UHGV virus genome: UHGV-1366603
DNA length: 64,000 bases
Strand: one strand, 5' to 3'
Origin: a virus
A model generated the notes under the pieces. It saw only the letters and a program-made list of their open reading frames with translations, did not search any database and had not been told where the DNA came from. Shown piece by piece: positions 1-58,760 of the stretch. Each line of letters begins with the position of its first letter. Positions within the stretch are counted from its first letter, which is position 1. The position numbers and the translations under genes are program-made.

Positions 1-2151
1 GACGAGATGTTGGCACCTGGCGGTGAGTTATCAACCGAATCACCGCTGTGTAAGATGTGGGTGCGTAATCAGAAAACAGGAGACCGTGAAGAGAAATACA
101 CCACCGTTGATAAACTGTTTAAAACCGTAATCGATAAACAGATTATCTCCGCACCGTCATTAACCTTTTATATCCCAGAACACATCAAACGTTCCAAGCT
201 ATCAGAATTCACTGCCGCTAACGTAGCTAAACGTGCAGCGGTGAAAAAAGAGATGTTTGCTGCCGAAGCAGCAGGTAATAGAGTCTTACAGATTAACAAA
301 AAGAACGAACAGAACGCAGTCAAGACTCTGAACAACGGGATGTCAGGCGCATTCTCTTCTCCGTACACGATTATCTTTAACCAATCGTCTCACTCTGTAT
401 TAACGTCAACCTGCCGTACTGCAACCTCATTCGGTAACGCAGGTAACGAACGTTTATTGGGCGGTAATCGTCATTACGACACGCCGTCATGTATCATCGA
501 TCATTTCTTGTCCATCGGTACGTTAACCGATTGGGATAGCTTCAAGAAATGTATGGATACGTACGAACTCCATTATCCGACCGTAGAAGAAGTGATGGAC
601 GTGATTCATTATTCTGCGGACTTCTACTTTAAGAACGAAGAGGGGATGGAGTTTGTTGAGCACTATGTATCGAATGTTTCTCCGCTCACTCGCGCGGCAT
701 TTGTTTACATGGGTGATTTTTATCATCTTGCGAAGTACAACGATCAGTTCATGCGTGGTTTTATTACCGCGATGATTTCTCGTGAGATGATTGACGAAGT
801 CGAAGACTGGGATGCTGCGGAAAAAACCATTGATGGTGACATGCAGATCATCATCTCCCAGTTCCGTACTGACGTGGTGCCGATGGGTAAAGCATTCAGC
901 CACGTTAAGAAACTCGACGATAAGAAAAAGCCATTGCCGTGGGATCAGCAGGATGACTATAAGGAACTAATTCGTTCCGCTCTGTTCTTACAGAAAACCA
1001 TCGGTAAGTACGCACTTTTGATTCGCAATATCCTGACCACTAAAAACTTGCCGATTAATATCGCAAGAATGCCAGATGTGGTCCGTCGTGTAGGTGTGGT
1101 ATCTGATACTGACTCTACAATGATGACTGCACAGTGGTGGGCGGTTTGGTATACTGGTAAGCATTACGGTGAAGAAGCAACCCGTGTATCCAACGCAATG
1201 ATTTATATTGCAACGCAGCACCTGCGTCATCTGATGGCGAGTATGTCTGCGAATATCGGTGTAGCGAAAGAACGTCTGTTCTTGTACGCGATGAAGAACG
1301 AATTTAAGTTCGATTCGTTTGCATTAACGACCAAAGCAAAACACTACTTCTCACTGATTACCGGTCAGGAAGGTCAGCTGAAAAAAGATCCCGAGCTGGA
1401 AGTAAAAGGGGTGTCTTTACGTACTTCGAATATTCCACCGATTATCATGAAGGAGTTTAAGAATACCATTAAAGGACTGTGTGAGGTCGTAGCGCGTGGT
1501 GACCAGATTGAAATCATTCCGTTACTGGAAAAGGTTGCGCAGATCGAACACACCATTATGGATTCTATTCGTTCAGGTAATCCGGGTTATCTGAAAACAA
1601 CGAACATTAAGGAGCGTAGCGCTTATAACGAGAAGGACGAGAAAAACTATCACTACCATCGAATGTACAACGCTATCTTTGGTCCGAAGTTTGGTCATCT
1701 GGAAGAACCGCCTTACGACGCTGTAAAACTACCGGTGGTTTTAGAAAACAAAACCAAGATTAAAGAGTGGTTGGACAGCATCGAAGATCCGATTATCCGA
1801 AACGGTGCAACCGCGTGGTTTGAGGAGAACAATTTCCGTAAATACAAAACGTTGATTCTGCCAGAGCACTTAGTAGAGAACTACGGTATTCCTAAAGAAT
1901 TGATCGATATTGCGGACATTCGTCGCACGGCGTTCTCAACTGTAGAACCGTACTATCACATCCTTGAATGCTTAGGTGTGTTCATGATGGATAAAAACCG
2001 TATGCGTTTACTGTCGGATTTCTACGATAAAACTGCTGAAGACGATGGGCTGTATAAAGAGCTTGCGGAAGTACAGTATGTCAAGAAATCAGAAAGGGCA
2101 GGTGAGGATGATGAGGACGAAGATGATGAAGAAACATTCGATGAGGAGTAA
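1..2151 (+). CDS. hypothetical protein, 5'-partial (frame open to window start); strongly acidic C-terminal tail
   Basis: Long ORF (track 7..2151) with in-frame codons back to nt 1; ends GEDDEDEDDEETFDEE; hairpin plus T-run follows. Weak DTDS and KAKHY motifs were noted but are not enough for a polymerase call. Confidence 0.8.
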   Translation, partial: DEMLAPGGELSTESPLCKMWVRNQKTGDREEKYTTVDKLFKTVIDKQIISAPSLTFYIPEHIKRSKLSEFTAANVAKRAAVKKEMFAAEAAGNRVLQINKKNEQNAVKTLNNGMSGAFSSPYTIIFNQSSHSVLTSTCRTATSFGNAGNERLLGGNRHYDTPSCIIDHFLSIGTLTDWDSFKKCMDTYELHYPTVEEVMDVIHYSADFYFKNEEGMEFVEHYVSNVSPLTRAAFVYMGDFYHLAKYNDQFMRGFITAMISREMIDEVEDWDAAEKTIDGDMQIIISQFRTDVVPMGKAFSHVKKLDDKKKPLPWDQQDDYKELIRSALFLQKTIGKYALLIRNILTTKNLPINIARMPDVVRRVGVVSDTDSTMMTAQWWAVWYTGKHYGEEATRVSNAMIYIATQHLRHLMASMSANIGVAKERLFLYAMKNEFKFDSFALTTKAKHYFSLITGQEGQLKKDPELEVKGVSLRTSNIPPIIMKEFKNTIKGLCEVVARGDQIEIIPLLEKVAQIEHTIMDSIRSGNPGYLKTTNIKERSAYNEKDEKNYHYHRMYNAIFGPKFGHLEEPPYDAVKLPVVLENKTKIKEWLDSIEDPIIRNGATAWFEENNFRKYKTLILPEHLVENYGIPKELIDIADIRRTAFSTVEPYYHILECLGVFMMDKNRMRLLSDFYDKTAEDDGLYKELAEVQYVKKSERAGEDDEDEDDEETFDEE

Positions 2152-2157
2152 CCGTTC

Positions 2158-2180
2158 AACGTTAGCCCCTAACGTTTTGC
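2158..2180 (+). terminator. putative intrinsic terminator
   Basis: Hairpin aacgttag/ctaacgtt followed by TTTT just after the stop at 2151; T-run is short. Confidence 0.4.
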
Positions 2181-2220
2181 GATAAAATAAAGAGGTAACG
2201 TTGCACACTTGTGCAACGTT
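2181..2220 (-). terminator. putative intrinsic terminator for the minus-strand gene 2274..3335
   Basis: Perfect 10-bp inverted repeat aacgttgcac/gtgcaacgtt (2197..2220) followed on the minus-strand transcript by a U-rich tract (plus-strand gataaaataaa). Confidence 0.5.
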
Positions 2221-2273
2221 ATTACTCTATTATATGAGGATTCGAAAGAGTCCTCAGCGGGGGAGAGTAAGTC

Positions 2274-3335
2274 TTATTTTTCGAGTGCACTGTATAATGG
2301 CAGAATTAACTCGTGTCGGTAGTAGTTTCTTGCCGAACGTGTGAGTTTCTCCAGAATCTTTGCATCCTCGAAACGGGCAATCCTTACCATCAGATTAGAT
2401 TTGTATTTACCCATGCTCGCGTTGTCGTATTGCAGGCAGAACAATGCCCAATACCAGTTGACGATATTTCGATGCCAACTACCTTGAATTGTCGAACCGG
2501 GTTCTTTAAACAGAATTCGATCCAACGCCGTGGACGGTTTATGTGGGTCTTCAAAAATCTGAGGTATGTGAGCCATGACAACCGCAGGTAGAGGTTTACC
2601 AGCACGTAACGATTTTGAAATCGCTTTCGCGTGACGGATTGCTAAATCGCGTAGAGGTGGAGTCGGAATAACTCGTAACGGGTTTTCTTCTTCTATCTCT
2701 TTACCGAAGGCAATCGCACGATGAATATTTAAGAAAGCGATATCCATGTAACTGGGTAACATCCTGTAAATGATGTGTCGCTGCGCGTATACCAAGCGCG
2801 TGATGGGTTCTGGTTGTGTTCGGTAGTATTGTTCAGCAAGAACGTATTGCCACAGTAGTGCAACCAGATTTATCTCGATAATGCTGATCCCTCGGGGTTT
2901 GCCGTTACCGAGCGTCCAGTTAAGATTCGTGTATTCGTGATAAAGGTAAACCACCGGTGTGTAGTCACGGAAAGAAAGATTAGGATCGACAGGTCTCGCA
3001 ACTAACGAGATGATTTCATCCTGACCTTCTATAAAAGCGCCGTTAAAAACTTGACCATACTCCCCCACAGAAGTTAAGCGTAGAGCGTTGCCGATATCTG
3101 ACAGCTTTCGACGACAAGCCCATTCGATTTCTTCGTACGTGGGTTCACCGGCATAGCCGATAGCTGCTAAGATTTTTAGGACGAGATGACCAGAACCAAC
3201 GCTGGTTTGAATCGTTTCTAAATAGTTGCGAATGCGCTGGTTATTATTTTTTACGGCATTGACCAATTGTATAGCAGAAGGGTCTTCGTAGCGCCCCTTT
3301 ATGACTGCTTGGTTTAACTCGGCTTGACTGAACAT
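2274..3335 (-). CDS. hypothetical protein
   Basis: Track ORF 2274..3359; start moved to the second in-frame ATG (3333..3335), which has an AAGGAG Shine-Dalgarno 6 nt upstream. Lone minus-strand gene between + strand neighbours. Confidence 0.75.
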   Translation of the reverse strand: MFSQAELNQAVIKGRYEDPSAIQLVNAVKNNNQRIRNYLETIQTSVGSGHLVLKILAAIGYAGEPTYEEIEWACRRKLSDIGNALRLTSVGEYGQVFNGAFIEGQDEIISLVARPVDPNLSFRDYTPVVYLYHEYTNLNWTLGNGKPRGISIIEINLVALLWQYVLAEQYYRTQPEPITRLVYAQRHIIYRMLPSYMDIAFLNIHRAIAFGKEIEEENPLRVIPTPPLRDLAIRHAKAISKSLRAGKPLPAVVMAHIPQIFEDPHKPSTALDRILFKEPGSTIQGSWHRNIVNWYWALFCLQYDNASMGKYKSNLMVRIARFEDAKILEKLTRSARNYYRHELILPLYSALEK

Positions 3336-3387
3336 GACTGACTCCTTGGGGTTACACATAGGAAACGGTCACATTCTACTCACATTG

Positions 3388-3419
3388 AAAAATATCTGAG
3401 AAAGATATTATCTATGTGA
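3388..3419 (+). promoter_or_regulatory. promoter-like motif, copy 1 of a tandem 31-nt repeat upstream of 3542
   Basis: aaaatatctgagaaagatattatctatgtga; near-duplicate at 3469..3499; contains the recurring AGATATTATC core. Confidence 0.45.
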
Positions 3420-3468
3420 TGGTTCGGTGGTTAACTATTTTGAGTTATGTGTGTTCTAGACGCATTCT

Positions 3469-3541: not shown

Positions 3542-5380
3542 ATGGCTAAAGAGTTTAACGAAATTCCTAACAACGTAAATGCTGGCGCTGCTGGTGTAGA
3601 CCCGGCTCCGTCTTTTGGTGGTGTAGGTGCTGGTGCAGGCAGTGTGGATAACACCCACGCAGCAAATGCTTTCGGTGGTATGACTAAGAACATCTCCACT
3701 TTCGATAAAGCGTTCGGCTATATGTCCTACGTTTCTGCCGCTTCACATTTCACCGCGCTGATTGCGAAGATGGTTGAACGTAACCCGTACCTGAGCAAAT
3801 TCCGCTGCGGCGTTATCGACGGTGTGAATCCAGAAATGGGTTCTGCGGCATACGTTGCTGCGCCAGCAGATGAAAATGGCAGCCACTGGATGTATGGTAT
3901 CTTGTTCTTCGAACACGGTCAGTCTGTACGCTTCCGTGAAATCAACGGTAAAGAAACTTATTACACCCTGGCTTCTCTGTTTGGTCAGGCTGGTGTAATG
4001 GATTCTATCACCAAACAAATCTGCGAACAGCAGAACCTGCCGTCTGTGCAATTCATGGTAATGAACTGCATTCCAGATCTGGGTAAAACGCTGACTGAAG
4101 AGTGGGCTATCCAGCTGATGGGTCAGCTGACTCTGGGTATCTTTGGCCGTATTCCGGGCTACCTGGGTCAGCTGAAACTGACTCGCGGCGATCGCTTCGT
4201 TGCACAGGTAACTGCGGTAGACGAAGGTTCTCTGACTGACGTTAACGGCTCTGCACAACGTGCTGACCTGATGGTTCAGGTTGAACACACTCAGACCGGT
4301 AGCTTCGATACTAACCCGACGCTGATGTCCTCTGAACGTGTTCAGGGTTATCCGAGCGTTGCGGGTGTGGGTTACATCAACCTGCGTTATACTGGTCGCC
4401 GTGCACCTGAAAACGGTGTACAGGATTACAAACAGCTGCAAGCAGAAGTTGTTGTTTCTCTGATGGACTCTCAGTCTTCCGGGGCTATGGTACCAATCGA
4501 ACGTCAGCTGATTGAACTGGCTGCCTTCGCAGAAATCGCCGCTATCGGTGGCTGGCGTGAACGCTTCATGCACTCTCTCAACAAAACCGATCGTCGTTTC
4601 TCCCGCGTTATGGAATACGTAGAGTGGGGTGACAAACGTCCTGATCTGAGCAAAATCGATGGCAACCGCGAAGCTATCGAAGAGTGCCTGAACATGTTCG
4701 CCTACCCAGAAGCTGCGCTGGTTGTGAACCATCGTGCTGGTAACGGTATCGGTGGTCTCTCCACGATGTTCAGTGAAGTTTCCCAGGGTAACACTGGTAC
4801 ACTGTCTAACATCCTGACCATCCTGGACAACATGGCTCCGAAAGGTGCTACGGTGTTCACGCAGCGTTTCGCTGAAATGCTGAAAGTTAATACCATCACC
4901 TGCAACCACGTTGTTATCGCTGGCGTACCGACAGTTTCCGGTCAGTATTTCAGCAACAGCCAGAAACGTAGCTTCCAGGATCAGGACCTGGTGTCTGTAC
5001 TGAGCAAAGTTGGTGATAACCAACACGATGCCTACACTTACCTGTACGCGCAATCTTACTCACACCGTCAGTTCAACGCGACTGAACAGCGTTTGTACCT
5101 GCTGAAGCTGGCCGCTTCCCTGTTCGGCAGCAAACAGCCGGTCGTAACTGGCGAGTCCACCGATTTGGCAATCAACCCGAAATTCGCCAAAGCGCTGCTG
5201 GACTACGTGCGTGATAACTGCATCTTCCAAGTGAATGGTGTCACCGCAGTCAATAGCCTGGCTAATACGTTGTTCTTCAACAACGGCGGTGAAAACTTCA
5301 CTCTGTCTGGTAACGGCCCGAATTCCTTCGGCAGTGACTACAACATGTCATTCGCTTCCGGTAACTACAGCCCTATCTGA
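3542..5380 (+). CDS. abundant early protein; candidate chimallin (phage-nucleus shell protein) homolog, 612 aa
   Basis: Strong RBS (aaggataaataaaATG); codon usage heavily skewed to CTG/CGT/GGT/ACC; sits immediately upstream of the beta' N-terminal gene, as the shell gene does in phiKZ (gp54 then gp55, from memory); strong terminator downstream. Assignment is by synteny and size only. Confidence 0.55.
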   Translation: MAKEFNEIPNNVNAGAAGVDPAPSFGGVGAGAGSVDNTHAANAFGGMTKNISTFDKAFGYMSYVSAASHFTALIAKMVERNPYLSKFRCGVIDGVNPEMGSAAYVAAPADENGSHWMYGILFFEHGQSVRFREINGKETYYTLASLFGQAGVMDSITKQICEQQNLPSVQFMVMNCIPDLGKTLTEEWAIQLMGQLTLGIFGRIPGYLGQLKLTRGDRFVAQVTAVDEGSLTDVNGSAQRADLMVQVEHTQTGSFDTNPTLMSSERVQGYPSVAGVGYINLRYTGRRAPENGVQDYKQLQAEVVVSLMDSQSSGAMVPIERQLIELAAFAEIAAIGGWRERFMHSLNKTDRRFSRVMEYVEWGDKRPDLSKIDGNREAIEECLNMFAYPEAALVVNHRAGNGIGGLSTMFSEVSQGNTGTLSNILTILDNMAPKGATVFTQRFAEMLKVNTITCNHVVIAGVPTVSGQYFSNSQKRSFQDQDLVSVLSKVGDNQHDAYTYLYAQSYSHRQFNATEQRLYLLKLAASLFGSKQPVVTGESTDLAINPKFAKALLDYVRDNCIFQVNGVTAVNSLANTLFFNNGGENFTLSGNGPNSFGSDYNMSFASGNYSPI

Positions 5381-5467: not shown

Positions 5468-6835
5468 GTGAAAGACAGATTACAATACTTCGGTGTATCA
5501 GGGCGATTAATCAGTCACGATAAAATGTTACGTGACGCTTTCAAAGAGGCGGAGGAAAAGGGCTATAAACCGCCGATGATTATCAATGATGTTGCGAAAT
5601 ATAAAGACACCATTGAGACGTCAGAGTTGATTAACCGAATCTTACAGAACCGGATAGTCGACGAGACGCTAAATTCGGCACCTATTTGTAGTATTGATTG
5701 TGAAGCACCTATCGTTCATCGATATAATCTCGGAATGCGATGTCCTACCTGCGGCTATGTGGTGACAGAACATCGTATTGTTTCAGAAGTCTGGATTCGT
5801 GCCCCGGAGGAAATAGGCAACTTTATTAACCCACGATTCTGGTCGATGTTTAACGCTTTCTTCGGTTCTAAACTTAAGAAGTTTAACCGAAACAAAGTGA
5901 CCGTAGAACGTGGTTCTGATTTATTGATGTGGATGTTAGATCCGTGTTATAAACCTGATAAAGACGAAGGTACTCGATCCCGAATAATCAAACGCATCTT
6001 TAGCGAGTATCAAGTTCCACGCGGTATTAGGAATTTTATTGACCACCATCGAACAATATTCAATATCTTAACTTCTCCTGAAGTCTGGAAAGAAATTTAT
6101 CCACCAACGAAAAATAACCGATATGAGAGCGAACGTACTCGCTTAGAGTGGAAAAAGTTCTTCGAAGAACAATCGCACACTTTCTTTCCGGTTCATCTTC
6201 CAATCATTTCACCCAAACTGATCGTTACGGAGGAACGACGTCAGGGTATCTTTATCGATCCTGTTTATACCAGTGCAATAGACGCGGTTAAGAACATCGC
6301 GTTACTTTATACCAATGCACGACGCATCCCAACCCATTTCATTATTAGTCGCGCATTAAAAGCAAATCGTCAGTTAGCGTACTTCTATATTGACCATCGT
6401 CAGGAGGTAATGGAAGGTAAACCTGGGTTCTATCGTGCCAAGTTAGGTTCAACACACATCCCGTGGGGTGGTCGTGTAACAATCTCTCCAATTTCAGAAC
6501 CGCACGACGCTATGAAGGTTATTGCACCTTGGCGTTGGTTAGTGACGTTAGAATCTGTAGCTATTGAAAACAAACTCGGTCGACGGAACTTCACACCACG
6601 GCAGTGTGAACGTGTTATTGCATTTGCATCAATGCAGTACGTACCGTTGGTTCATGAAATTATCAACGAACTTATTAAGGAGTCTCGTGGCGGTTACGGC
6701 CTGATGATATCAGCGCTACGAAACCCGACGCTTGTACAGTTGTCTATTCAGACATTATTTATCTCAGCTGTTAACCCTGATGTTACACAGTGCTCGTTAC
6801 GTATCTCCGATCGCGTCATCAAAGCTCCGAATGCT
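5468..6835 (+). CDS. multisubunit RNA polymerase beta' subunit, N-terminal fragment, exon 1
   Basis: GTG start with GAGGA RBS. Zn-finger-like CxxC...CPTC; GFYRAKLG..WGGRVTISP matches beta' [38 protein letters not shown] matches NRAPTLHRLGIQAF; exon ends ...RVIKAPNA (last nt T at 6835). The track ORF runs on to 6967 only because the intron is in frame until a stop. Confidence 0.85.
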
Positions 6836-7185
6836 AAAATTTGGCCCACTAGACGGGAAACCTCTAGTGCGTATCCCCCGAATTGCTGGGAACTCCTAAA
6901 GCTTACGATCCCGACAGGGTGGCGAAAGCCAGAAACAATTCGTAAGATAGCCTATGCTAACCAATAATGCTAAGGGTTGTGATAATGGATAACCAGCAGC
7001 GATGAAAATCGTTCAACGACTATCGAAAGGGTAAAACCGAGTAGAGTAGCTGCTTAGTTTAGCGGCGAAGTGGGGGAGACCTACGGGTAGCAATACCTAC
7101 GGTTATGATATAGTCTGTGCCCATGTGAAAACATGGGAGGGTGTCATTGCACACCTGCTCCAAAAGGAATGGAGTGGACAAACAG
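6836..7185 (+). ncRNA. group I self-splicing intron, 350 nt, no ORF, interrupting the beta' gene inside NADFDGD
   Basis: 5' exon ends in U (6835) and the intron ends in G (7185). P-like aattgctgg (6881..6889), Q-like ccagcagc (6993..7000), R-like gttcaacgactat (7011..7023) and S-like gatatagtctg (7107..7117) with GACUA/UAGUC P7 pairing. Flanking hairpins cactaga/tctagtg (6847..6869) and cccatg/catggg (7120..7137). Splicing restores NA|DFDGDQ. Confidence 0.75.
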
Positions 7186-28732: not shown

Positions 28733-29242
28733 ATGGCAACCAAAGACATTTCTACCCAAGATGCTCGTCCCGCTGCTGTTAAGCGCTCCGCAGAAGCGGC
28801 GGTAGCTTATAGCCAAGATGACTCTTATCAGGTAAACCTTATTGCTGCGCAGTTAGACGAAGCAGGGAATACCATCGGTACCAACAAACCGAAAAATACG
28901 TCGGAAGCAGACGACGCTTTCCGTAAACTGCATCAGTCTTTCCGTAGCCTGTTTGAACTGCGCGGTCAAGCGTTTATCGACGCTTTTAACGTTTTCGTTG
29001 CTGCTGCGATTAAACACAAGCGTAGCATCTTCTATTACCCGAATGTGAACTACCACCTGGATTGGTTCCACGATTCTGCTGAGCGTGAAACTTACGTGGT
29101 GTTTATCAACATGCTGGTACGTTTTGCTAACTCTCAAGATAAAGCAAACTTCGCACAGCGTGACAACGTTAACCGTCTGCTGCAACGTGTAACTGACCCA
29201 GAGCTGCAACAGCTGCTGGCGTACTGCTTCAACGCGGCTTAA
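28733..29242 (+). CDS. hypothetical protein
   Basis: taagga RBS; terminator downstream. Confidence 0.8.
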   Translation: MATKDISTQDARPAAVKRSAEAAVAYSQDDSYQVNLIAAQLDEAGNTIGTNKPKNTSEADDAFRKLHQSFRSLFELRGQAFIDAFNVFVAAAIKHKRSIFYYPNVNYHLDWFHDSAERETYVVFINMLVRFANSQDKANFAQRDNVNRLLQRVTDPELQQLLAYCFNAA

Positions 29243-29249
29243 TAAGCAT

Positions 29250-29290
29250 TACCCTACTCCCGAGAGGAGTAGGGTAGCTTTTATTTTTTC
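29250..29290. terminator. bidirectional intrinsic terminator between convergent genes (repeat copy 1)
   Basis: taccctactcc-cgaga-ggagtagggta hairpin followed by ttttatttttt; near-identical copy at 34616..34657. Confidence 0.8.
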
Positions 29291-31072
29291 TTAGTGAGTG
29301 GTTTTGATGTATTCAAACGGATCGGTAATAGCCTCACCTTGACGACGTAAGAACGCTTCTAACACAACGTTCTTATCCGGCAATAAGAAGAAGTCCGTTG
29401 CGATTTCCATTGCATTAACACGCCCTGCGGTAAGGTTAATCCCTACACGACGACGTACTTCTTCAGGAACACCATGAATACTTAGCAACTCGATTAACGT
29501 TGTTTCACGAGACTGGTTCATCATGTTCGTTGCAGAAGGATACGCCTGGGTTAAGTCCGCATCTGCGGTTTGCCCACGGAATGCAGTGTAGAAATCATCA
29601 AACTCTTTAATGATTCCTCGCAGACCGTTTTCCGCGTTCATACACGCAGTTAACGTAACAATCCAACCGTCCGTACCGATAACTTCTTCATCGAAATCAT
29701 TACGCATTGCACTACCTACACAACCGATAACCAATCCTTGTTCGTAAAGGTAGTAGGTGTAAGCAATACAAATACGTTTTGGTAACGAAGGGAAGATATC
29801 GTACATCGAATAACCTGCCAGTACGGAAATCGCCGAAGACAAGTCGTTCGTCTTTTTATCCAACAACACAATCATCAGGTTATCGAAGATGTTGTAAACG
29901 CAGTATTCGAGCGGGAACTCTTTCTGTGCTTTTAAGTGCCATTCCAGTTTCTCCTCGTAAGGCAGCTCTGGCAAGTCTAACTTGTTTAAGCCCAGTTCGG
30001 TTTCCAGAATAGCGTTAAGTTTGTAAGAAGGACGTTGACCTTCGTGAACCCTCAGTGAACGAAATAGACACATTGCATCCACACAGTAGAACGATGCGGT
30101 ACAATAAAGTACGTGCCACTGTTGTGAAGGTGCTTTGGTCAGTGATTTCGATTCCGTTTTCTTCGATGCTTCGTCTTTCTTGAAGTAAACACGACGGTAT
30201 TGTTTCGGTACATCGGGATGACAAAAGACGTCTTCCGGTGGAATCCCTGCGGCTTCTAGTGCTTCTAACATGCGTGAAATATCGAACTCGTGGTTCCATG
30301 CAACTAATAAGTCAGGTAGACGAGGGTGAATCTCTTCAAACATGCGTTGAATACAGCAGCCAGAGTTTAAGCATTCGTAAACGAAGATTTTATATCCAGC
30401 GATAACGTCCTTGATTTCGATCTTAGAATTGCCTTCTTTGTCTTTGCCACGAAAAGCAATTTTAGAAAGTAACTCCTGAGCACGTTTAATTAGTCGCGTT
30501 TCGAAGTTCTCACGACCACAACGCGCAACGTAGTCTTTCGTTGCGAAGAAATGAATTTCGTCATCCAAAACAAAACTCATAATCCAAGGGTCTCGAGATT
30601 TGTCTTCTTCTCGAGTTTCCACGTCGTATACACAAATACGGTTAGGTGAAACAGCGTTAGGCCATTTCTTTACATACCTTTCTTTAATCCAGCTGGTGAT
30701 AGGTAAGTCAGCCCAGTAAACGTACGGAGAGGTACAGACTTGACGTAATGAACGTTTTTTGTCAGGAAATCTTGCCCCTAAACCCATCTGGATAGTTTGC
30801 GACATCATCACATCCGTGGTCATGTATTCCTGACACTTGCTACGTTCTTCGTATTCTTTCTTTTCTTGATGGTTACGGTGTTGTGGTAAAGTAATGTAGA
30901 TAGGCCGTTTCAGATTTTCACGCATGACGATACGCGGGATGAATCTGCCATCTTTAGTATGGACGACCTCCTTTATGAGCACGAAGTCGTTTTCTTTCTG
31001 CTGATCGGTTGCGTACGAAACAAATTTGCACTCTTTGGCAATAACGTCTTCCGGTGCGTAATAGTTATTCAT
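29291..31072 (-). CDS. DEDDy-type 3'-5' exonuclease domain protein (possible proofreading or exonuclease subunit)
   Basis: Exo I VYDVETRE, Exo II WNHEFDISRM, Exo III YNIFD, in order. Track ORF 29291..31207; start moved to the in-frame ATG at 31072 (MNNYYAPE...). Confidence 0.6.
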   Translation of the reverse strand: MNNYYAPEDVIAKECKFVSYATDQQKENDFVLIKEVVHTKDGRFIPRIVMRENLKRPIYITLPQHRNHQEKKEYEERSKCQEYMTTDVMMSQTIQMGLGARFPDKKRSLRQVCTSPYVYWADLPITSWIKERYVKKWPNAVSPNRICVYDVETREEDKSRDPWIMSFVLDDEIHFFATKDYVARCGRENFETRLIKRAQELLSKIAFRGKDKEGNSKIEIKDVIAGYKIFVYECLNSGCCIQRMFEEIHPRLPDLLVAWNHEFDISRMLEALEAAGIPPEDVFCHPDVPKQYRRVYFKKDEASKKTESKSLTKAPSQQWHVLYCTASFYCVDAMCLFRSLRVHEGQRPSYKLNAILETELGLNKLDLPELPYEEKLEWHLKAQKEFPLEYCVYNIFDNLMIVLLDKKTNDLSSAISVLAGYSMYDIFPSLPKRICIAYTYYLYEQGLVIGCVGSAMRNDFDEEVIGTDGWIVTLTACMNAENGLRGIIKEFDDFYTAFRGQTADADLTQAYPSATNMMNQSRETTLIELLSIHGVPEEVRRRVGINLTAGRVNAMEIATDFFLLPDKNVVLEAFLRRQGEAITDPFEYIKTTH

Positions 31073-31143
31073 GTTTTCACTCTCAAATCTAGCGGCTGCT
31101 ATACTGATTTGTGGGTAATGTAATTTCTCAAAAGGAAACACAA

Positions 31144-32478
31144 ATGGGATACTGGCAAAATCACATTGCATCAGTTGCGGATGCAAAGGTTGTAGCCGCA
31201 GAATCAATTAAATTCCAAGATAAAAAGAAACTCGCAGAACTGGCAGACATTATTGCTAAATTTCGTGCAGCCGGAGACTTCAGTCCGGCCGGTTACGAGA
31301 GTTCTGGTGTTTCTGATTGGGTATTTAAAACCAACGGCATTAGCATTAACTTTAAGAACGGTAGCGAACTCGGATTATTCGACGTTGCCTTCGCAGGTGT
31401 AGAACCACCTAAGCTGGACGCGAACAGTCCGGTAATTGCGTCAATGGCGCGTGCACTGTACGCAGGTAATAAAGACCTGGACATGTACAGTAAGTTTATT
31501 AAAGAAAACGAACTGAACAGCAGCATTGACGATTCCAGTGCGAAAATCAGCGGCGACTTGAGCAAAGTCAGTTCCCCGCTTTATCTGACCCCGGTGCTGT
31601 TAGAGAAACTGGAGCTCACCGATTTGGAGGTTGCTGCGGTAATCCTTCACGAAGTCGGGCACGTTTATTATTACTTCCGTACGCTGATGCGTACCGTGGT
31701 AACGGATTTATTGGCAGACGCTGCGGCTAACCGCATCATGGAAAGCGAAGACCCAGCTGTTCGTTTACGTGTGGTTAAAGACGTTGAACGAATGCTGAAC
31801 ACGAAAGTGAATCAGCCTGAGACCATCTGCACTGAGTACAAGAAAGAAAACGTCTACATGCACCTGGTAACAGATTTGCTGTTAGACCGTCCGTTCATTA
31901 CCGGTAGTCAAGGCTTTGCAAACCGTACCTGGGAACGTGCTGCTGACGACTTCGCTGCCCGCTTCGGTGCGGCCCCGTACTTAGCTTCCGCGCTGTACAA
32001 AATGGAAACCAGCCCGTTCTATCTGCTGCGTAACTCGTCGTATATGAACATGGGTGTCCACCTGACGATTGAGTTGTTCCGTGTGACTGCGCTGATTGCC
32101 CAAGCTGCCATTCCGATTCTTCCGGTTATCTCTGTTACGTTCGGCATGATTCTGAACGACCCAGATAACACCATCTACGATCCGCCGCAGGAACGTTTTG
32201 AAGCGATGCGCCGTACGCTGGTAGAAGAACTGAATACCATCAAAGACAAAAACACGAAAGCGGCTAACGAGCAACGTAAACGTATTCTGGATGGTATCGC
32301 GGTAATTGACCGTATTCTCCTTACGGTTAAAGACAAAGATAACCTGTATCAGTTTATCTGGAAGACGCTGACACCGAAAGGGCGTCGTGACCGTGCTGCG
32401 GTGGATTATCAGCGCGCTATCGGGAAGTATATGTCGAATGACCTCCGTATCGCTTCTGCCATGTTTAACGTCGATTAA
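31144..32478 (+). CDS. putative zinc metallopeptidase-like protein (HExxH motif)
   Basis: AAVILHEVGHVYYY; track ORF starts at GTG 31111, ATG 31144 with aaaagga RBS preferred; divergent from the exonuclease gene. Confidence 0.55.
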   Translation: MGYWQNHIASVADAKVVAAESIKFQDKKKLAELADIIAKFRAAGDFSPAGYESSGVSDWVFKTNGISINFKNGSELGLFDVAFAGVEPPKLDANSPVIASMARALYAGNKDLDMYSKFIKENELNSSIDDSSAKISGDLSKVSSPLYLTPVLLEKLELTDLEVAAVILHEVGHVYYYFRTLMRTVVTDLLADAAANRIMESEDPAVRLRVVKDVERMLNTKVNQPETICTEYKKENVYMHLVTDLLLDRPFITGSQGFANRTWERAADDFAARFGAAPYLASALYKMETSPFYLLRNSSYMNMGVHLTIELFRVTALIAQAAIPILPVISVTFGMILNDPDNTIYDPPQERFEAMRRTLVEELNTIKDKNTKAANEQRKRILDGIAVIDRILLTVKDKDNLYQFIWKTLTPKGRRDRAAVDYQRAIGKYMSNDLRIASAMFNVD

Positions 32479-41632: not shown

Positions 41633-42904
41633 ATGGCAAATTTCGCAAAAACTCGCGCCGCTCGTGAATCAATGGAAGCGGCCGATGAAGTAATCGACGG
41701 TATCAGCAACGTTGAACCGGCAGAAGAGAACCTGGACGTCCAGCTTGCGGACGTTGCATCTATCGACGGTCAGCTCGAACAGCTGGAAACCGACGGTGAA
41801 ACCCTGGCTGCCGATACCGAGCGTACTGAAGACGCTATCGAACAGGCGGAAGAAGCCGTTGCTAACGGTGAAGAAATGCCGGAAGAAGCGGTTGCCCTGC
41901 ATGAAGTGGCACAGGAATCCATCGCACGTCGTTGGAACCTGGAGCGTACTAAACTGGCTCGCGAATCCTATCGCCGTGGCCGTGGCATGACTGCTGCTGC
42001 GCAGGAAGGCTGGAAAGAAACCCTGAAAGGTCTTTACGAGCGTTTCATTCAGTTCTGTAAAGAAGTAATTGCGAAGATCAAAGACCTGAAACTGAAATAT
42101 TTCAACGTCGGTAAGACCGCACAGAAACGTGCGAAGAAATATCAGGAAATGATCCGCAAGCTGGGCAAACAAGATAAAGACAACATTTCTGGCGGCTTTA
42201 TCACCAAACTGTCCATCGAAGGTAAATTCGATGCTGCTGGCTCTATTGCCATTGCTAAAGAAGTGACCGCAGGTAAAGCTAAAGGTGCTATCAGTGCACT
42301 GGAAAAACAAGCTGGTGAAGCTGTGACTGCTGTTACCAAAGGTGACGATGACGCATTCAAAGCGATGCGTGGTGATCAGCCGGTTGAACTGTTTGGTAAA
42401 GCAGCGTCTAAACTGCATTCTCTGCCGAACTTTGAAAACGGCGATGCGTCTAAACTGCTGGCTCTGCCGGGCAACGCTTACGTTCAGGCTGGTACTAAAG
42501 AACTGGCTGGCGGCCACAAGTTCACCGCAATTGCGTTCATGAGCACCGGTGACGCTTCTGACGATAAAGAAGTGGCTACTCCGTCTGTTTCCGAAATGGC
42601 TGGCGCGGCATCTGCTCTGGAAGCGATCGGTAAAGGCTTCGAAGCTGTACTGAAAGATTTCCGTGCTTACGATTCTGAAATCGTGAAACTGCAACAGGCT
42701 GCTGAAAAAGCGTCCAACGCGCTGAACAACGAAAAAGACGAAAGTAAGTGGGAAGGACTGCGTAATGCACGTCAGGCCGCTGATCAGTCTGTGAAGAACT
42801 ACCAGACCCTGAACCGTGCCGTTAGCTATGTTGCTAACACCGTTATTAGCGGTCTGAACGGTTACCTGGGTGCTGGTATCGGCGCGTACAAAAAGTCTAA
42901 ATAA
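41633..42904 (+). CDS. paralog A of a tandem pair; abundant protein with acidic N-terminal region (possible processed head or internal virion protein)
   Basis: Starts MANFAKTRAARESMEA, ends GLNGYLGAGIGAYKKSK; host-optimal codon usage. Confidence 0.8.
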   Translation: MANFAKTRAARESMEAADEVIDGISNVEPAEENLDVQLADVASIDGQLEQLETDGETLAADTERTEDAIEQAEEAVANGEEMPEEAVALHEVAQESIARRWNLERTKLARESYRRGRGMTAAAQEGWKETLKGLYERFIQFCKEVIAKIKDLKLKYFNVGKTAQKRAKKYQEMIRKLGKQDKDNISGGFITKLSIEGKFDAAGSIAIAKEVTAGKAKGAISALEKQAGEAVTAVTKGDDDAFKAMRGDQPVELFGKAASKLHSLPNFENGDASKLLALPGNAYVQAGTKELAGGHKFTAIAFMSTGDASDDKEVATPSVSEMAGAASALEAIGKGFEAVLKDFRAYDSEIVKLQQAAEKASNALNNEKDESKWEGLRNARQAADQSVKNYQTLNRAVSYVANTVISGLNGYLGAGIGAYKKSK

Positions 42905-42980
42905 TTAGACTTACGCTCGTACAGTTCTTGAAATAAATCAATAGGGGAACGACGTGTTCCCCTTAGAGGAAAAGCTTAAA

Positions 42981-44243
42981 ATGGCAAATTTCGCAAAAAC
43001 TCGCGCCGCTCGTGAATCGATGGAAGCTACTGCTACTGTAGTTCCAGACGGCATCGAACTGCCAGCAGAATCTGTTGAAGGTACTCTGGCCGATATCGAA
43101 CATGATACCAAACCGATCGAAGCCCTGGACGCTGACGCTGAACTGCTGGCCGAAGACGGCGACGAAACTGATGCTCAACTGGATGTCCTGGATGAAGCTC
43201 AGGCCGCTGCCGACGGTGAAGGTGCTGGTGAAGACGGCGAAGAGCCGATGGACGCTGAAGAAGATATGCCGGACGACGCAGCGACTGCGCTGGACGTTGC
43301 TCAGGAATCTATCCGTTCTCGTTGGAACTTCGAACACCGTTCTTCCGTTGCACACGAATCCTACGGTTCTCGTAACCGTCGCCAGGTTGCTCGTGAATCC
43401 CTGTGGGAAGACATTAAAGCATTCCTGAAACGTATCTGGGAATGGCTGAAAGAACAAGGCCGTAAGATCAAAGATCGTTGGCTGAAATTCTCCAACCAGG
43501 GTAAATCCATCCAGGCTCGTTCTAAGAAATACGACGATGCTATTCGTAAACTGGGCAAACAGAAGAAAGATGAAATCTCTGGTGGCTTCATCAAGTCTCT
43601 GTCTATCGACGGTAAATTCGTTGGCGACGATCTGTCGCGCCTGAAGAATATCCTGAACCACGTCTCCACCTACTACAGTGGTAACGTTCAGAGCTTCCTG
43701 AACAACGGTACGGATATGGTTGGTAACGTCGTTAAAGGCGATGGTGCTAAAGTTGAGAAACTGAAAGCAGACTTCGCTGCTCTGGCTAAAGAAGACGTTA
43801 GCAAGTTCAAACTTGGTAACATGGCTCTGAAGATGGAGTACGACGAAGAAGGCGGATTTAGCTCCAGCTATGTGGAAGCTGAAAACCGTGCTGAAACCAA
43901 CGTGAAAACTCCGTCTGTTAGCGAACTGGCTAAGACCAATGCCTTCTTCAACGAAGTGGGTAAACAGATCGAGAAGAACGTTCTGGAATATCGTAAGACT
44001 GAACAGGCTCGCGAGAAATTCAGCCAGCAGATTGAGAAGCTGCTGAAAGAAATCGACAGCGTGAAGATCGACGAAAAACCGCAACTGACCGAATCTGTAC
44101 GTACCGCACGTCGTTACATCAACAGCATTAACCAGGCAGTGTCTCTGGGCGAGAAAGTTATTTCCTCTACTCAGAAACATCTGGCTGGCGGTCTGAACGG
44201 CTATATCTCCGCAGGTATCGCTGCTTACGAAAAATCTAAATAA
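42981..44243 (+). CDS. paralog B of the tandem pair
   Basis: Same N-terminus MANFAKTRAARESMEA and same end GLNGYISAGIAAYEKSK; track start GTG 42954, ATG 42981 with GAGGA RBS preferred. Confidence 0.8.
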   Translation: MANFAKTRAARESMEATATVVPDGIELPAESVEGTLADIEHDTKPIEALDADAELLAEDGDETDAQLDVLDEAQAAADGEGAGEDGEEPMDAEEDMPDDAATALDVAQESIRSRWNFEHRSSVAHESYGSRNRRQVARESLWEDIKAFLKRIWEWLKEQGRKIKDRWLKFSNQGKSIQARSKKYDDAIRKLGKQKKDEISGGFIKSLSIDGKFVGDDLSRLKNILNHVSTYYSGNVQSFLNNGTDMVGNVVKGDGAKVEKLKADFAALAKEDVSKFKLGNMALKMEYDEEGGFSSSYVEAENRAETNVKTPSVSELAKTNAFFNEVGKQIEKNVLEYRKTEQAREKFSQQIEKLLKEIDSVKIDEKPQLTESVRTARRYINSINQAVSLGEKVISSTQKHLAGGLNGYISAGIAAYEKSK

Positions 44244-44260
44244 TCTCTGATTGTTTAGTA

Positions 44261-44307
44261 GGAGAACCACCCTGTAATGGGGTGGTTCTCCCTTTTCTTT
44301 TTTTTTT
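44261..44307 (+). terminator. intrinsic terminator
   Basis: ggagaaccaccc-tgtaat-ggggtggttctcc hairpin followed by a T-rich run. Confidence 0.85.
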
Positions 44308-44322
44308 CGCATTAAAAATAAT

Positions 44323-56474: not shown

Positions 56475-58760
56475 ATGAAAGATACCCGAATCTCTAATTT
56501 AGAGAAACTCGTAGAAGCCGGTACTAGTCTGGCCCAAAACGTCATCGGCAACAACACCGCCAGCGAAATGTGGAATACGATTGTTGCAGGCGAGTCCGTA
56601 CGCAGCAACGCAAAAGTGTTTGGCGCTCTGCGTGACGAAGCATCACAGCACTATGCCAACGCTTTTGGTGGCAAGAAAATGTCTCATGCTGCGACTGTCG
56701 CCTCCGCAATGATTCTGGGCGCAGCTAACCACGGTAAAGACCTGCAAGAACGTGTTGCCCAGGAATACGCTAAGCCGGAATTCCACACCAAGTATAACCT
56801 GGATATTGGTATCCCTGGTGCGCAAGGTGGTGACTGGGGTCGTGAGCGCATGGTTGTTGCTCAGGAATACTACAGCAACAAAGACTACGACAAAAACCTG
56901 GGCCTGACCTGGACCCTGAACGTACGTGCTCTGGAAACTCAGTCCAAGTTTGCTGAAACACTGTTCCCGACCATTACCGTCGACACCAACGATGTTGGTA
57001 TTACCGTACGTACTAAAGTGACTACCGTTTCTCGCGGTATCATGAACGCGCTGCTGAGCAAAGACGTCGTTGAAGATCATCGTCGTCCGCTGCACAACGC
57101 ACTGACTGACCACACCGTTCTCCAGGACGAAGCGATCAACATCGTTCCTTACGTAATGGAAACCGGTGAAAACCAGGAATACTTCGTAAGCGAAGAACTG
57201 GTTCCGAACGAAACCGTTCGCCTGGGTCGTGTACCTCCGTATCCGACTAACTACCTGAGCTTTGCAAACGACACGCTGAACCTGTTCCAGCTGTCTGCGC
57301 ATCCGGGTATCGTTCAGGAAGGTTACGAAGAAACTGATGAAATCGCACCGGGTTGTGCTCTGGGCAGCCTGCTGATTTCTGTACGTAAACCGGCCGAAGA
57401 AGCGAAAGCGGGTAAATTCATCAAACTGCACGTTCGTGACATGCAGTTCGCAACCTTCCAGCGTCCTGCTGAAGGTGACGGCCGTGAACTGGTTCTGCAA
57501 TTCCGTCGTACCGCGTTCTCTCTGAATGCGAAAACCACTGACTGGAAAGGCGACGCTATTCCGGCTCTGCAAGCACTGGGCCAGAACTCCTACACCCTGC
57601 GCTACGTTATCACCATCACCATGTCCCTGTTCACCAGCGGCCAGTTCGGTGGTAAAGTAGACATTTCCGGCCACAAACTGGAAATCGAAGGTCTGTACGA
57701 TGCAACTGGTAACAAAGTTGATACCAAGTCTGGTACCGGTAAAGTTATCCTGGATGGCCTGAAACTTGAACTGATGGGCTGGCGCTTCGATGGTACTCGT
57801 ACCAACGAAAACCGTCGTACCCAGGGTCTTCTGCTTGACCCAATTTGGGAACAGGAAAACTACAAACTGCAATACGGTTCTCCGATTCTGACCAAGTCTC
57901 CGGTTGGTGTTGAATACGACGACACTGAACGTCTGGACGACCTGATCTCTGCGGTGAACATCCGTAACGAACAGCTGGCTATTACTCAGACGCTGTCTTA
58001 CACCGAAGCAGTACGTAACGCAGCCGCTGCGATGATCACTCCGTGGGACAAACCGGCTATCCGTGGTCTGGGCCGTCACTGGGTTGCTCCGTGGTTCAAA
58101 GAGTCTGACTACAAAGTCGATGAAGTTGTTCAGTCTCTGGATACCAAAGAAGCGCTGATCAACGCTCGTCAGGGTCTGTTGCAGCGTATCGGTAGCCAGG
58201 TAACTCAGGCTATCCAGGATTCTCGTTTCATTCCTGCACTGCGCCTGCTGACCGCTGATCCGGACATTCTGCCGAAAGTTATTATCGCAACTGACGAACC
58301 GACTGCATCTATGCTGCTGCTGGTTCAGGGCGACCAACGTCTGCTGGGCGACCGTTATGAATACGAAGTCGTTACCACCAACGATGACCGCTGGCGCATC
58401 TACAACGCAGCTGACGATTCCTGGACTCGTCGTCTGCAATGGTTCCTGAAAGTTCCGACTGCGGACGATGGTTCCTACTGCGTACTGAACTGGGGTAACC
58501 ACTTCTGGTCTCCGATCATGGTTACCAACATCAACATCCAGCGTAACGGTTCTACTTCTAAAGAACTGGCTGTACAGCCGCGTAACGCGCATATCTGCCA
58601 CTGCCCGATCACTGGTCTGATTTGGGTTAAAGGCATCACCAAACTGGTTGAAGAAAAACTGGCTTACAACGTTTCTGTAGAACAGAACGGCCAGAAACAA
58701 ACCGACGGTGGTGTAGCAGGTAATGTTGCTGGCGACGGTAAAGACAAAGCTGGTAAATAA
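56475..58760 (+). CDS. abundant virion protein; major capsid protein candidate, 761 aa
   Basis: taaggtattaaacaa RBS; very strong host-optimal codon bias; size close to jumbo-phage major capsid proteins; strongest terminator in the window follows. Product call is inference. Confidence 0.5.
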   Translation: MKDTRISNLEKLVEAGTSLAQNVIGNNTASEMWNTIVAGESVRSNAKVFGALRDEASQHYANAFGGKKMSHAATVASAMILGAANHGKDLQERVAQEYAKPEFHTKYNLDIGIPGAQGGDWGRERMVVAQEYYSNKDYDKNLGLTWTLNVRALETQSKFAETLFPTITVDTNDVGITVRTKVTTVSRGIMNALLSKDVVEDHRRPLHNALTDHTVLQDEAINIVPYVMETGENQEYFVSEELVPNETVRLGRVPPYPTNYLSFANDTLNLFQLSAHPGIVQEGYEETDEIAPGCALGSLLISVRKPAEEAKAGKFIKLHVRDMQFATFQRPAEGDGRELVLQFRRTAFSLNAKTTDWKGDAIPALQALGQNSYTLRYVITITMSLFTSGQFGGKVDISGHKLEIEGLYDATGNKVDTKSGTGKVILDGLKLELMGWRFDGTRTNENRRTQGLLLDPIWEQENYKLQYGSPILTKSPVGVEYDDTERLDDLISAVNIRNEQLAITQTLSYTEAVRNAAAAMITPWDKPAIRGLGRHWVAPWFKESDYKVDEVVQSLDTKEALINARQGLLQRIGSQVTQAIQDSRFIPALRLLTADPDILPKVIIATDEPTASMLLLVQGDQRLLGDRYEYEVVTTNDDRWRIYNAADDSWTRRLQWFLKVPTADDGSYCVLNWGNHFWSPIMVTNINIQRNGSTSKELAVQPRNAHICHCPITGLIWVKGITKLVEEKLAYNVSVEQNGQKQTDGGVAGNVAGDGKDKAGK

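Follow-up and report, generated by a model that had tools for sequence, protein, structure and literature searches.

A probable two-gene family-B DNA polymerase and a neighbouring M48-like head protein gene in a phiKZ-related jumbo phage

The virus genome UHGV-1366603 was analysed over a stretch of 64,000 nucleotides (the window), centring on two divergently arranged genes at positions 29291 to 32478. The minus-strand gene encodes a 593-aa protein that carries the N-terminal and exonuclease regions of a family-B DNA polymerase (PolB) followed by polymerase motif A, and the remaining polymerase motifs lie on a second gene at the left edge of the window. The favoured reading, with a probability of roughly 80%, is that these two genes encode the two-gene family-B replicative polymerase typical of phiKZ-like jumbo phages, and that the plus-strand gene of the divergent pair, which encodes an M48-like head protein, is an unrelated neighbour. 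The split polymerase and the head protein have both been described already, and no new kind of system is involved. The window comes from an SPN3US/Asesino-like, phiKZ-related 'group 1' jumbo phage (Erskinevirus/Seoulvirus-like) with conserved synteny.

Exonuclease motifs and motif A on the minus-strand protein

The gene and its motifs are located as follows:

29291-31072, minus strand: gene for the split-PolB N-terminal subunit, 593 aa; ATG at 31072 (complement 'cat' 31070-31072), stop at 29291
30608-30628, minus strand: Exo I, YDVETRE (from residue 149; D150, E152); both residues in 46/46 homologues; aligned with RB69 D114 and E116
30281-30298, minus strand: Exo II, WNHEFD (from residue 259; N260, D264); N260 in 46/46 and D264 in 45/46 homologues; aligned with RB69 WNVESFD222, N217...D222
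29882-29896, minus strand: Exo III, YNIFD (from residue 393; Y393, D397); both residues in 46/46 homologues; aligned with RB69 Y323-NIID327
29498-29563, minus strand: polymerase motif A, DADLTQAYPSATNMMNQSRETT (residues 504-525); aligned with RB69 FDLTSLYPSIIRQVNISPETI by hmmsearch and within the collinear hhalign alignment

A sequence-only reading of this region had recognised Exo I, Exo II and Exo III, in that order, and the three motifs proved near-invariant in an alignment of 46 homologues whose identity falls to 23%; judged from that alignment, their conservation is far beyond chance. The same reading had compared the protein with the proofreading domains of family A/B polymerases, with RNase D and with WRN-like enzymes, and of these only the family-B likeness has survived. 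Pfam and PDB searches with the single sequence of the exonuclease piece gave no match, and NCBIfam gave no useful match for it or for the HExxH protein of the plus strand; family profiles and the predicted structure succeeded. PHROG 3011 matches the protein end to end (E 4e-252) and PHROGs 262 and 2062 were matched as well, all three being labelled 'DNA polymerase', and Pfam DNA_pol_B_exo1 (PF03104) matches one distant member of the family.

The AlphaFold2 model of the 593-aa protein has a predicted local distance difference test (pLDDT) score of 82 overall, above 90 at residues 11-300 and mostly 83-98 up to residue 450 (one block being at 67). When the model was compared with the PDB by Foldseek, the best 50 matches were all family-B DNA polymerases, headed by RB69 gp43 (E 2.7e-13, probability 1.00) over ~470 columns that take in the PolB N-terminal and exonuclease domains. 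For profile comparison, a canonical PolB alignment was built from 10 sequences, namely T4, an RB69-like phage and eight more distant ones (T4-type, cyanophage, Vibrio, Stenotrophomonas, Ackermannviridae), in which the RB69 numbering was recovered at D114, E116, D222, Y323, D327, D411, Y416, K560, D621 and D623. The exonuclease-piece family aligned with it by hhalign at 98.8% probability (E 1e-16), in a single collinear alignment that spans RB69-like residues 82-433 and includes motif A.

DEDDy motifs alone are common to RNase D, WRN and RNase T-like families, and on that basis the protein could be a non-replicative nuclease of the DnaQ superfamily, engaged in RNA or DNA processing or in degradation of host DNA. 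This is scarcely credible, given that the structural matches are exclusively family-B polymerases and run through the PolB N-terminal domain, that PF03104 and the three PHROGs agree with them, and that motif A comes after the exonuclease domain. An RNase D/WRN-like identity was rejected on the Foldseek matches and is effectively refuted. The membership in the DnaQ-like superfamily that the sequence-only reading had presumed is borne out by the hhalign result; profiles and model together indicate a PolB-type DEDDy 3'-5' exonuclease rather than one of the RNase D/WRN type. By sequence comparison and synteny the protein is the orthologue of SPN3US gp44 and of Asesino gp61, and its amino acid identity to the closest listed relatives is ~75-80% (80% for Asesino).

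The earlier statement that no polymerase palm motifs follow the exonuclease is contradicted by motif A. This motif reads D504-A-D506-L-T-Q-A-Y511-P512-S513 ... N519-x-S-x-E-T524, and among the homologues that cover the region D504, D506, Y511, P512 and T524 are present in 41/41 and N519 in 40/41. The family profile aligns residues 496-521 with RB69 405-430, such that D506-L-T-Q-A-Y-P-S-A-T-N-M-M-N-Q-S-R-E-T is paired with RB69 D411-L-T-S-L-Y-P-S-I-I-R-Q-V-N-I-S-P-E-T; D506 thereby corresponds to the catalytic D411 of RB69, and Y511 to its steric-gate Y416. Motifs B (KxxxNSxYG) and C (DTDS) are absent from the 593-aa protein, and both are found on the separate gene at 1-2151. Model confidence is low at residues 456-556 (pLDDT <50), the region that holds motif A, which would be consistent with a palm segment that needs its partner in order to fold.

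In several metagenomic relatives the gene for the exonuclease piece is called as only 458-492 aa, ending just after a conserved 'GWI' (W470 and I471 of the window protein). At the two such loci that were checked, L028 (7443-7864) and L030 (7409-7805), a group I intron follows the 'GWI' stop (RF00028; 51.4 bits, narrowly over the gathering score), and beyond it an open reading frame (ORF) of 105-114 aa carries motif A (DxDI(T/L)QAYPT...ET), which places the intron ~35 codons ahead of motif A at both loci. The window gene is uninterrupted. A further PolB gene is interrupted at motif A in the T4-like phage JSE (L042), whose gene 43 is annotated as two coding sequences (298-1506 and 2034-3440) with a 527-nt gap, the first ending ...SFDLTSLN*, inside motif A. 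Rfam at the gathering threshold found no intron in this gap.

The partner gene and the break in the polymerase

The sequence-only reading had left two alternatives, a stand-alone exonuclease and the exonuclease piece of a split replicase, and had proposed a search for a separately encoded polymerase domain. Such a domain is encoded in the same window, in favour of the split replicase:

1-2151, plus strand: partner gene, C-terminal split-PolB subunit (fingers, palm, thumb); SPN3US gp18 orthologue; 5' end beyond the window edge
322-351, plus strand: motif B-like KTLNNGMSGA, in the partner gene
1102-1116, plus strand: motif C, SDTDS, in the partner gene; SDTDS is invariant in the family
1333-1350, plus strand: KxY motif (KAKHYF), in the partner gene

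A motif scan of every ORF in the window returned a single 'SDTDS', in the first ORF (1-2151). The product of this ORF is matched by PHROG 2927 'DNA polymerase' (E 2.5e-298) over profile positions 52-710, ~50 residues being missing at the N-terminus, and by Pfam divDNApol ('Divergent Family B DNA polymerase', PF20286; E 2e-272). A weak match to PF00136 covers profile positions 97-190 and thus starts past motif A. A profile of 42 partner-family sequences aligns SPSLTxY..KRS...NEQNxxKTxNNxxSG with the fingers and motif B of yeast Pol zeta (E 3e-3), and hhalign pairs VVSDTDS, KAKHY and EVKGV of the partner with YGDTDS, KKRY and KIMG of the RB69-like sequence. The full-length SPN3US orthologue of the partner is gp18 (YP_009153312.1, 759 aa), which serves as the example accession for the group-1 polymerase (Iyer et al. 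2021, PMC7824862); its N-terminus carries no motif A. The 5' end that the window lacks can be supplied by a 99%-identical IMG/VR contig, UViG_3300045988_078609.

Read over the two genes, the motif order is Exo I, II, III and motif A on the first, then motif B, a ~250-residue family-specific insert, motif C, KxY and the thumb on the second. The polymerase piece is present in 302 phage records, from hosts that include Pseudomonas, Erwinia, Salmonella, Vibrio, Serratia, Klebsiella and Ralstonia, and no fused form of exonuclease and polymerase occurs among 62 exonuclease-piece clusters and 120 listed polymerase-piece clusters.

On the favoured reading, the 593-aa subunit would supply the PolB N-terminal domain, a DEDDy 3'-5' proofreading exonuclease (its activity being predicted) and the opening segment of the palm, on which motif A lies. 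The second subunit, of the SPN3US gp18 type and encoded 27 kb away, would supply the fingers (motif B), the DTD hairpin of motif C, KxY and the thumb. We infer that a whole PolB arises only when both polypeptides come together, as a heterodimer with a composite polymerase active site, and that neither piece should polymerise alone. The break appears, from the distribution of motifs, to fall between motif A and the fingers, that is, between motifs A and B, and the catalytic centre would thus be built of two polypeptides.

The division of this polymerase has a literature of its own. The system was first noted for 201phi2-1, EL and OBP, the exonuclease ORF being recognised in 201phi2-1 and the term 'split subunit DNA polymerase' introduced for OBP; SPN3US gp18 and gp44 are cited under the same term (PMC5105663, PMC5694885), and neither was detected in SPN3US virions (PMC5694885). 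Kazlauskas and Venclovas identified the polymerase piece in 2011 (PMC3201878), and the exonuclease has been described as separately encoded (PMC3201878, PMC7824862). No sliding clamp is known for phiKZ-like phages (PMC3201878, PMC7824862).

Some points weigh against a catalytic centre shared between the two chains. The polymerase piece of EL is said to hold all polymerase domains, D229 and D398 being modelled as its two catalytic aspartates (PMC3201878), and the exonuclease is treated as a stand-alone associate (Iyer et al. 2021, PMC7824862). The alignment of the polymerase piece with canonical PolB by hhalign is weak (21%, E 1e-3). Finally, the polymerase piece contains an additional invariant Asp, D288 in SPN3US gp18, in a strand-like FVYxGD(F/L)(Y/F)HL context (43/43; window positions 700-729); it lies in the insert that separates motif B from motif C, and could in principle replace motif A.

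Taken together, the published placement of both aspartates and the presence of D288 would suit a proofreading exonuclease that is a protein in its own right and merely binds a polymerase complete in itself, the motif-A-like segment being a non-catalytic relic. This is unlikely on several grounds. D398, as seen in the EL-like phage HHBS8_1, is the second Asp of SDTD, but the D229 column holds Asp in 34/43 family members and Asn in the other nine, SPN3US among them; it varies between Asp and Asn and is therefore not an essential metal ligand, and D229 was rejected as the catalytic Asp of motif A. A relic would not retain D504, D506, the steric-gate Tyr, the Pro and the Thr in every homologue that covers the region, and N519 in all but one of these. 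Exo I-II-III and motif A are collinear with RB69 in a single alignment, PF00136 matches the polymerase piece only from beyond motif A onwards, and hhalign leaves D288 unpaired with motif A. The invariant motif A on the exonuclease piece is, from these alignments, a better candidate than EL D229. It is rather probable, then, that the phiKZ-like catalytic centre is formed from two polypeptides, with the motif A Asp and the steric-gate Tyr on the 'exonuclease' subunit and motifs B and C on the 'polymerase' subunit, and that the published map needs correcting.

Comparison with other polymerases places the pair beside SPN3US gp44 and gp18, with which it shares gene order, divergent neighbour, two-gene architecture, pieces lying tens of kb apart, and PHROGs 3011 and 2927. 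There is no architectural difference from that pair; what is added here is the assignment of a canonical motif A to the exonuclease piece, at odds with the earlier map (PMC3201878). The single-chain gp43 of RB69 and T4 has the same order of N-terminal domain, Exo I-III, motifs A, B and C, and KxY, and both it and the window pair keep the DEDDy residues and DLTxxYPS...NxSxET. In contrast to gp43, the chain of the window polymerase stops after motif A and resumes with the fingers on a second gene, its motif B is degenerate (KxxxNNxxSG; Ser stands at the position of RB69 Y567), and the ~250-residue family-specific insert separates motifs B and C.

Other PolB enzymes are reportedly made of two polypeptides with a break inside the polymerase domain and not at its border with the exonuclease: PolB1/PolB2 of Methanothermobacter, as Kelman et al. 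are said to have described in 1999, and gp43A/gp43B of the Aeromonas T4-like phages 44RR and 25, said to have been described by Petrov et al. in 2010. These splits are independent events in canonical PolB lineages, with adjacent cistrons, the likeness to the window pair being one of general plan. Unlike them, the window split has its pieces 27 kb apart and is fixed across the whole virus family.

The M48-like head protein

The plus-strand gene of the divergent pair and its features are as follows:

31144-32478, plus strand: M48-like head protein gene, 444 aa; ATG at 31144 with AAGGAA ahead; PHROG 2767
31144-31203, plus strand: predicted 20-residue N-terminal propeptide ending at AAE20/S (slash, cleavage site), with prohead-protease cleavage and capsid-targeting signal; E20 invariant in 121 relatives
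31648-31662, plus strand: HEVGH, predicted zinc-binding/catalytic motif (residues 169-173; H169, E170, H173); H169, E170, G172 and H173 invariant in 121 relatives; aligned with ZMPSTE24 H335-E-L-G-H339
31933-31947, plus strand: ERAAD motif (E264, predicted third zinc ligand; D268); E264 and D268 invariant in 121 relatives; aligned with ZMPSTE24 E415-FQAD
32056-32163, plus strand: conserved hydrophobic stretch, residues 305-340; Kyte-Doolittle 19-residue window up to 1.9

PHROG 2767, whose function is not annotated, matches residues 1-442 of the 444 (E 8e-152). An exhaustive profile search for the family collected at least 2190 cluster representatives (50%-identity clusters), 1736 of them with E <= 1e-10. 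The protein matches SPN3US gp45 (72% identity) and PHIKZ084 by tblastn, and on sequence grounds it is the orthologue of SPN3US gp45 and phiKZ gp84; no difference from that family was detected.

The sequence-only reading had called the HEVGH motif metallopeptidase-like, which the profile evidence sharpens to an M48-type signature. Pfam Peptidase_M48 (PF01435) matches residues 147-287 just under its cut-off (E 6e-4), and 25/60 family members match the same model individually at E <= 0.01, the best at 3.4e-6. In the PDB the family profile matches human ZMPSTE24 best (E 5.8e-5), both HExxH and ExxAD aligning collinearly with it, and the spacing of ~90 residues from HExxH to ExxAD is the M48 signature. 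As in the M48 enzymes Ste24/ZMPSTE24, HtpX, BepA and Oma1, HExxH is followed by ExxAD with Glu as the third zinc ligand. Unlike these enzymes, the protein has no multi-pass membrane domain, a signal peptide was not seen on inspection by eye, and a phage prohead-protease propeptide and packaging into the capsid are predicted. It also differs from them in its flanks, since no relatives could be detected for ~150 residues on either side of the catalytic core. The stretch at residues 305-340 is hydrophobic also in a 34%-identical homologue.

The N-terminus reads ...VVAAE20/SIKFQ, with an AxE site at residue 20 as in SPN3US gp45. The latter is a head protein from which a 20-residue propeptide is removed by the prohead protease gp245, as established by mass spectrometry, and the length of this propeptide is comparable to that of T4 capsid-targeting sequences (PMC5694885, PMC10052503). 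By analogy, the same cleavage and the same capsid location may be expected in the window phage: the prohead protease would remove the propeptide after AAE20 and leave an M48-type protein inside the capsid as an internal head protein. The protein is most likely an internal head metalloprotease, and would probably be ejected with the DNA.

A purely structural internal head protein, in which the metalloprotease-like motif is catalytically unused, is an improbable alternative, although several observations speak for it. In SPN3US, Asesino and phiEaH2 the annotation is merely 'putative virion structural protein'; a literature search for phiKZ gp84 gave nothing relevant, and no biochemical function is reported for the gp45/gp84 family in searchable papers. 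The predicted model of the protein is poor and both fold searches gave no meaningful match. The Pfam score, at 20.1 bits, also falls 0.2 bits short of the 20.3-bit cut-off, which counts against the assignment to M48. On the other side stands the pattern of conservation: among 121 relatives of 21-65% identity the only invariant positions are E20, G137, H169, E170, G172, H173, E264, D268 and R351, that is, the Glu of the cleavage site, G137 and R351 together with the M48 set H-E-x-G-H...E-x-x-x-D. Such a pattern resembles the outcome of purifying selection on catalysis. Some homologues in GenBank and RefSeq are labelled 'M48 family lipoprotein protease', 'beta-barrel assembly-enhancing protease' or 'peptidase'.

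Genomic context and significance

Two further features belong to the intergenic regions on either side of the gene for the exonuclease piece:

31073-31143: divergent spacer, 71 nt; contains TGCTATACT; the block CTGCTATAYTGATTTGTGGGTA includes this extended -10-like element, TGCTATACT
29249-29277: terminator-like hairpin, 12-bp, GC-rich, with T-run; lies between the convergent ends of the gene at 28733-29242 (plus strand) and the exonuclease-piece gene

The divergent arrangement, the 71-nt distance between the two start codons and the plus-strand HEVGH (residues 169-173) are as the sequence-only reading had them. The minus-strand ATG at 31072 is supported because homologues are 592-596 aa long; the longer TTG and GTG starts of the mechanically made ORF list would make the two genes overlap, and are ruled out by the lengths of the homologues of both (592-596 and 448-451 aa). 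The DNA around the pair is ~73% identical to Erwinia phage Asesino (Erskinevirus), phiEaH2 and Salmonella phage SPN3US (Seoulvirus), and in the window and in these three phages the genes come in the order RNA polymerase subunit piece, small hypothetical gene, opposite-strand 'DNA polymerase' and 'putative virion structural protein'. The hairpin downstream of the exonuclease-piece gene is perfect (TTACCCTACTCC-CGAGA-GGAGTAGGGTAG, then a T-run) and is terminator-like on both strands in a terminator scan.

When the window, Asesino and SPN3US are aligned, 87% of the columns are identical in the spacer with 15 nt on each side, against ~73% in the surrounding region, and the conservation of the spacer suggests two back-to-back promoters. 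The spacer also contains a sigma-70-like match with an extended -10, which was discounted as evidence of a promoter because this phage group uses its own RNA polymerases. Within the window the conserved 22-mer and 10-mer of the spacer have no second copy, and no promoter family could be defined.

The divergent arrangement of the two genes might be read as a link between them. They could form a functional unit, for example one in which the protease processes or regulates the polymerase subunit, with co-regulation through the shared spacer; relatives keep the adjacency and a spacer of 70-72 nt, and the spacer sequence has changed unusually little. Such a unit is very unlikely, since gp45 is a head protein of SPN3US and gp18 and gp44 were undetected in its virions (PMC5694885), since the distant relatives L028 and L030 have an unrelated gene of 428-432 aa between the two, and since the partner that the exonuclease piece needs is the one encoded 27 kb away. 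An implied link found no support, and the polymerase subunit gene and the HExxH gene are probably functionally unrelated neighbours. Paralogy between the HExxH gene and the intervening 432-aa gene of L028 was considered and dismissed, as the two show no similarity.

An RNA polymerase gene of the window is interrupted. A group I intron core (RF00028) was found at 6825-7137, scoring 61 bits where the gathering score is 50 (E 5e-13), within an intron whose inferred, approximate ends are ~6836-7185 and which lies inside the gene that starts at 5468 on the plus strand and encodes an RNA polymerase subunit (PHROG 2987). The last residues of exon 1 are ...VIKAPNA, and beyond the intron the frame opens with DFDGDQLQV; splicing would rebuild the universal catalytic NADFDGD, and the intron therefore sits within the active-site motif of the RNA polymerase. 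Elsewhere in the window, very long antisense ORFs (341-685 aa) occur inside or opposite long sense genes at 3743-5053, 41669-42694, 42963-44312 and 56643-58700, all on the minus strand.

Copies of both window proteins (P0001 and P0063) that are 99-100% identical are deposited as 'hypothetical protein' in isolate assemblies of Escherichia coli and Salmonella Enteritidis. Their clusters hold 384-467 member sequences, and the contigs are of 108-225 kb, including 225-kb IMG/VR contigs. The closest match in the phage collection searched has only ~74% nucleotide identity. By these sequence matches the same phage has been sequenced before, yet it has no close record in that collection; it seems that this jumbo phage often accompanies enterobacterial isolates, whether as a contaminant or in a carrier state, while isolated phages include no representative of it.

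The practical value of these assignments lies in annotation and in the design of experiments. Proteins of the gp44 type would be better labelled 'DNA polymerase, N-terminal/exonuclease subunit (carries motif A)' than 'exonuclease' or 'hypothetical'. For reconstitution of the polymerase, for which no clamp or primase is known, both pieces should be co-expressed, and mutations in motif A or the steric gate belong in the gp44-type subunit. A motif A and a steric-gate Tyr on the exonuclease subunit contradict one published domain map, and predict that neither subunit polymerises alone. The M48-like protein, with its more than 2000 sequence clusters and its invariant catalytic set, is a candidate for an injected protease that would act on host targets at the start of infection. 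The two genes would thus encode a central part of the replicase and a conserved enzyme from inside the capsid, in the nucleus-forming and phiKZ-like jumbo phages, which currently attract interest in phage therapy and in cell biology.

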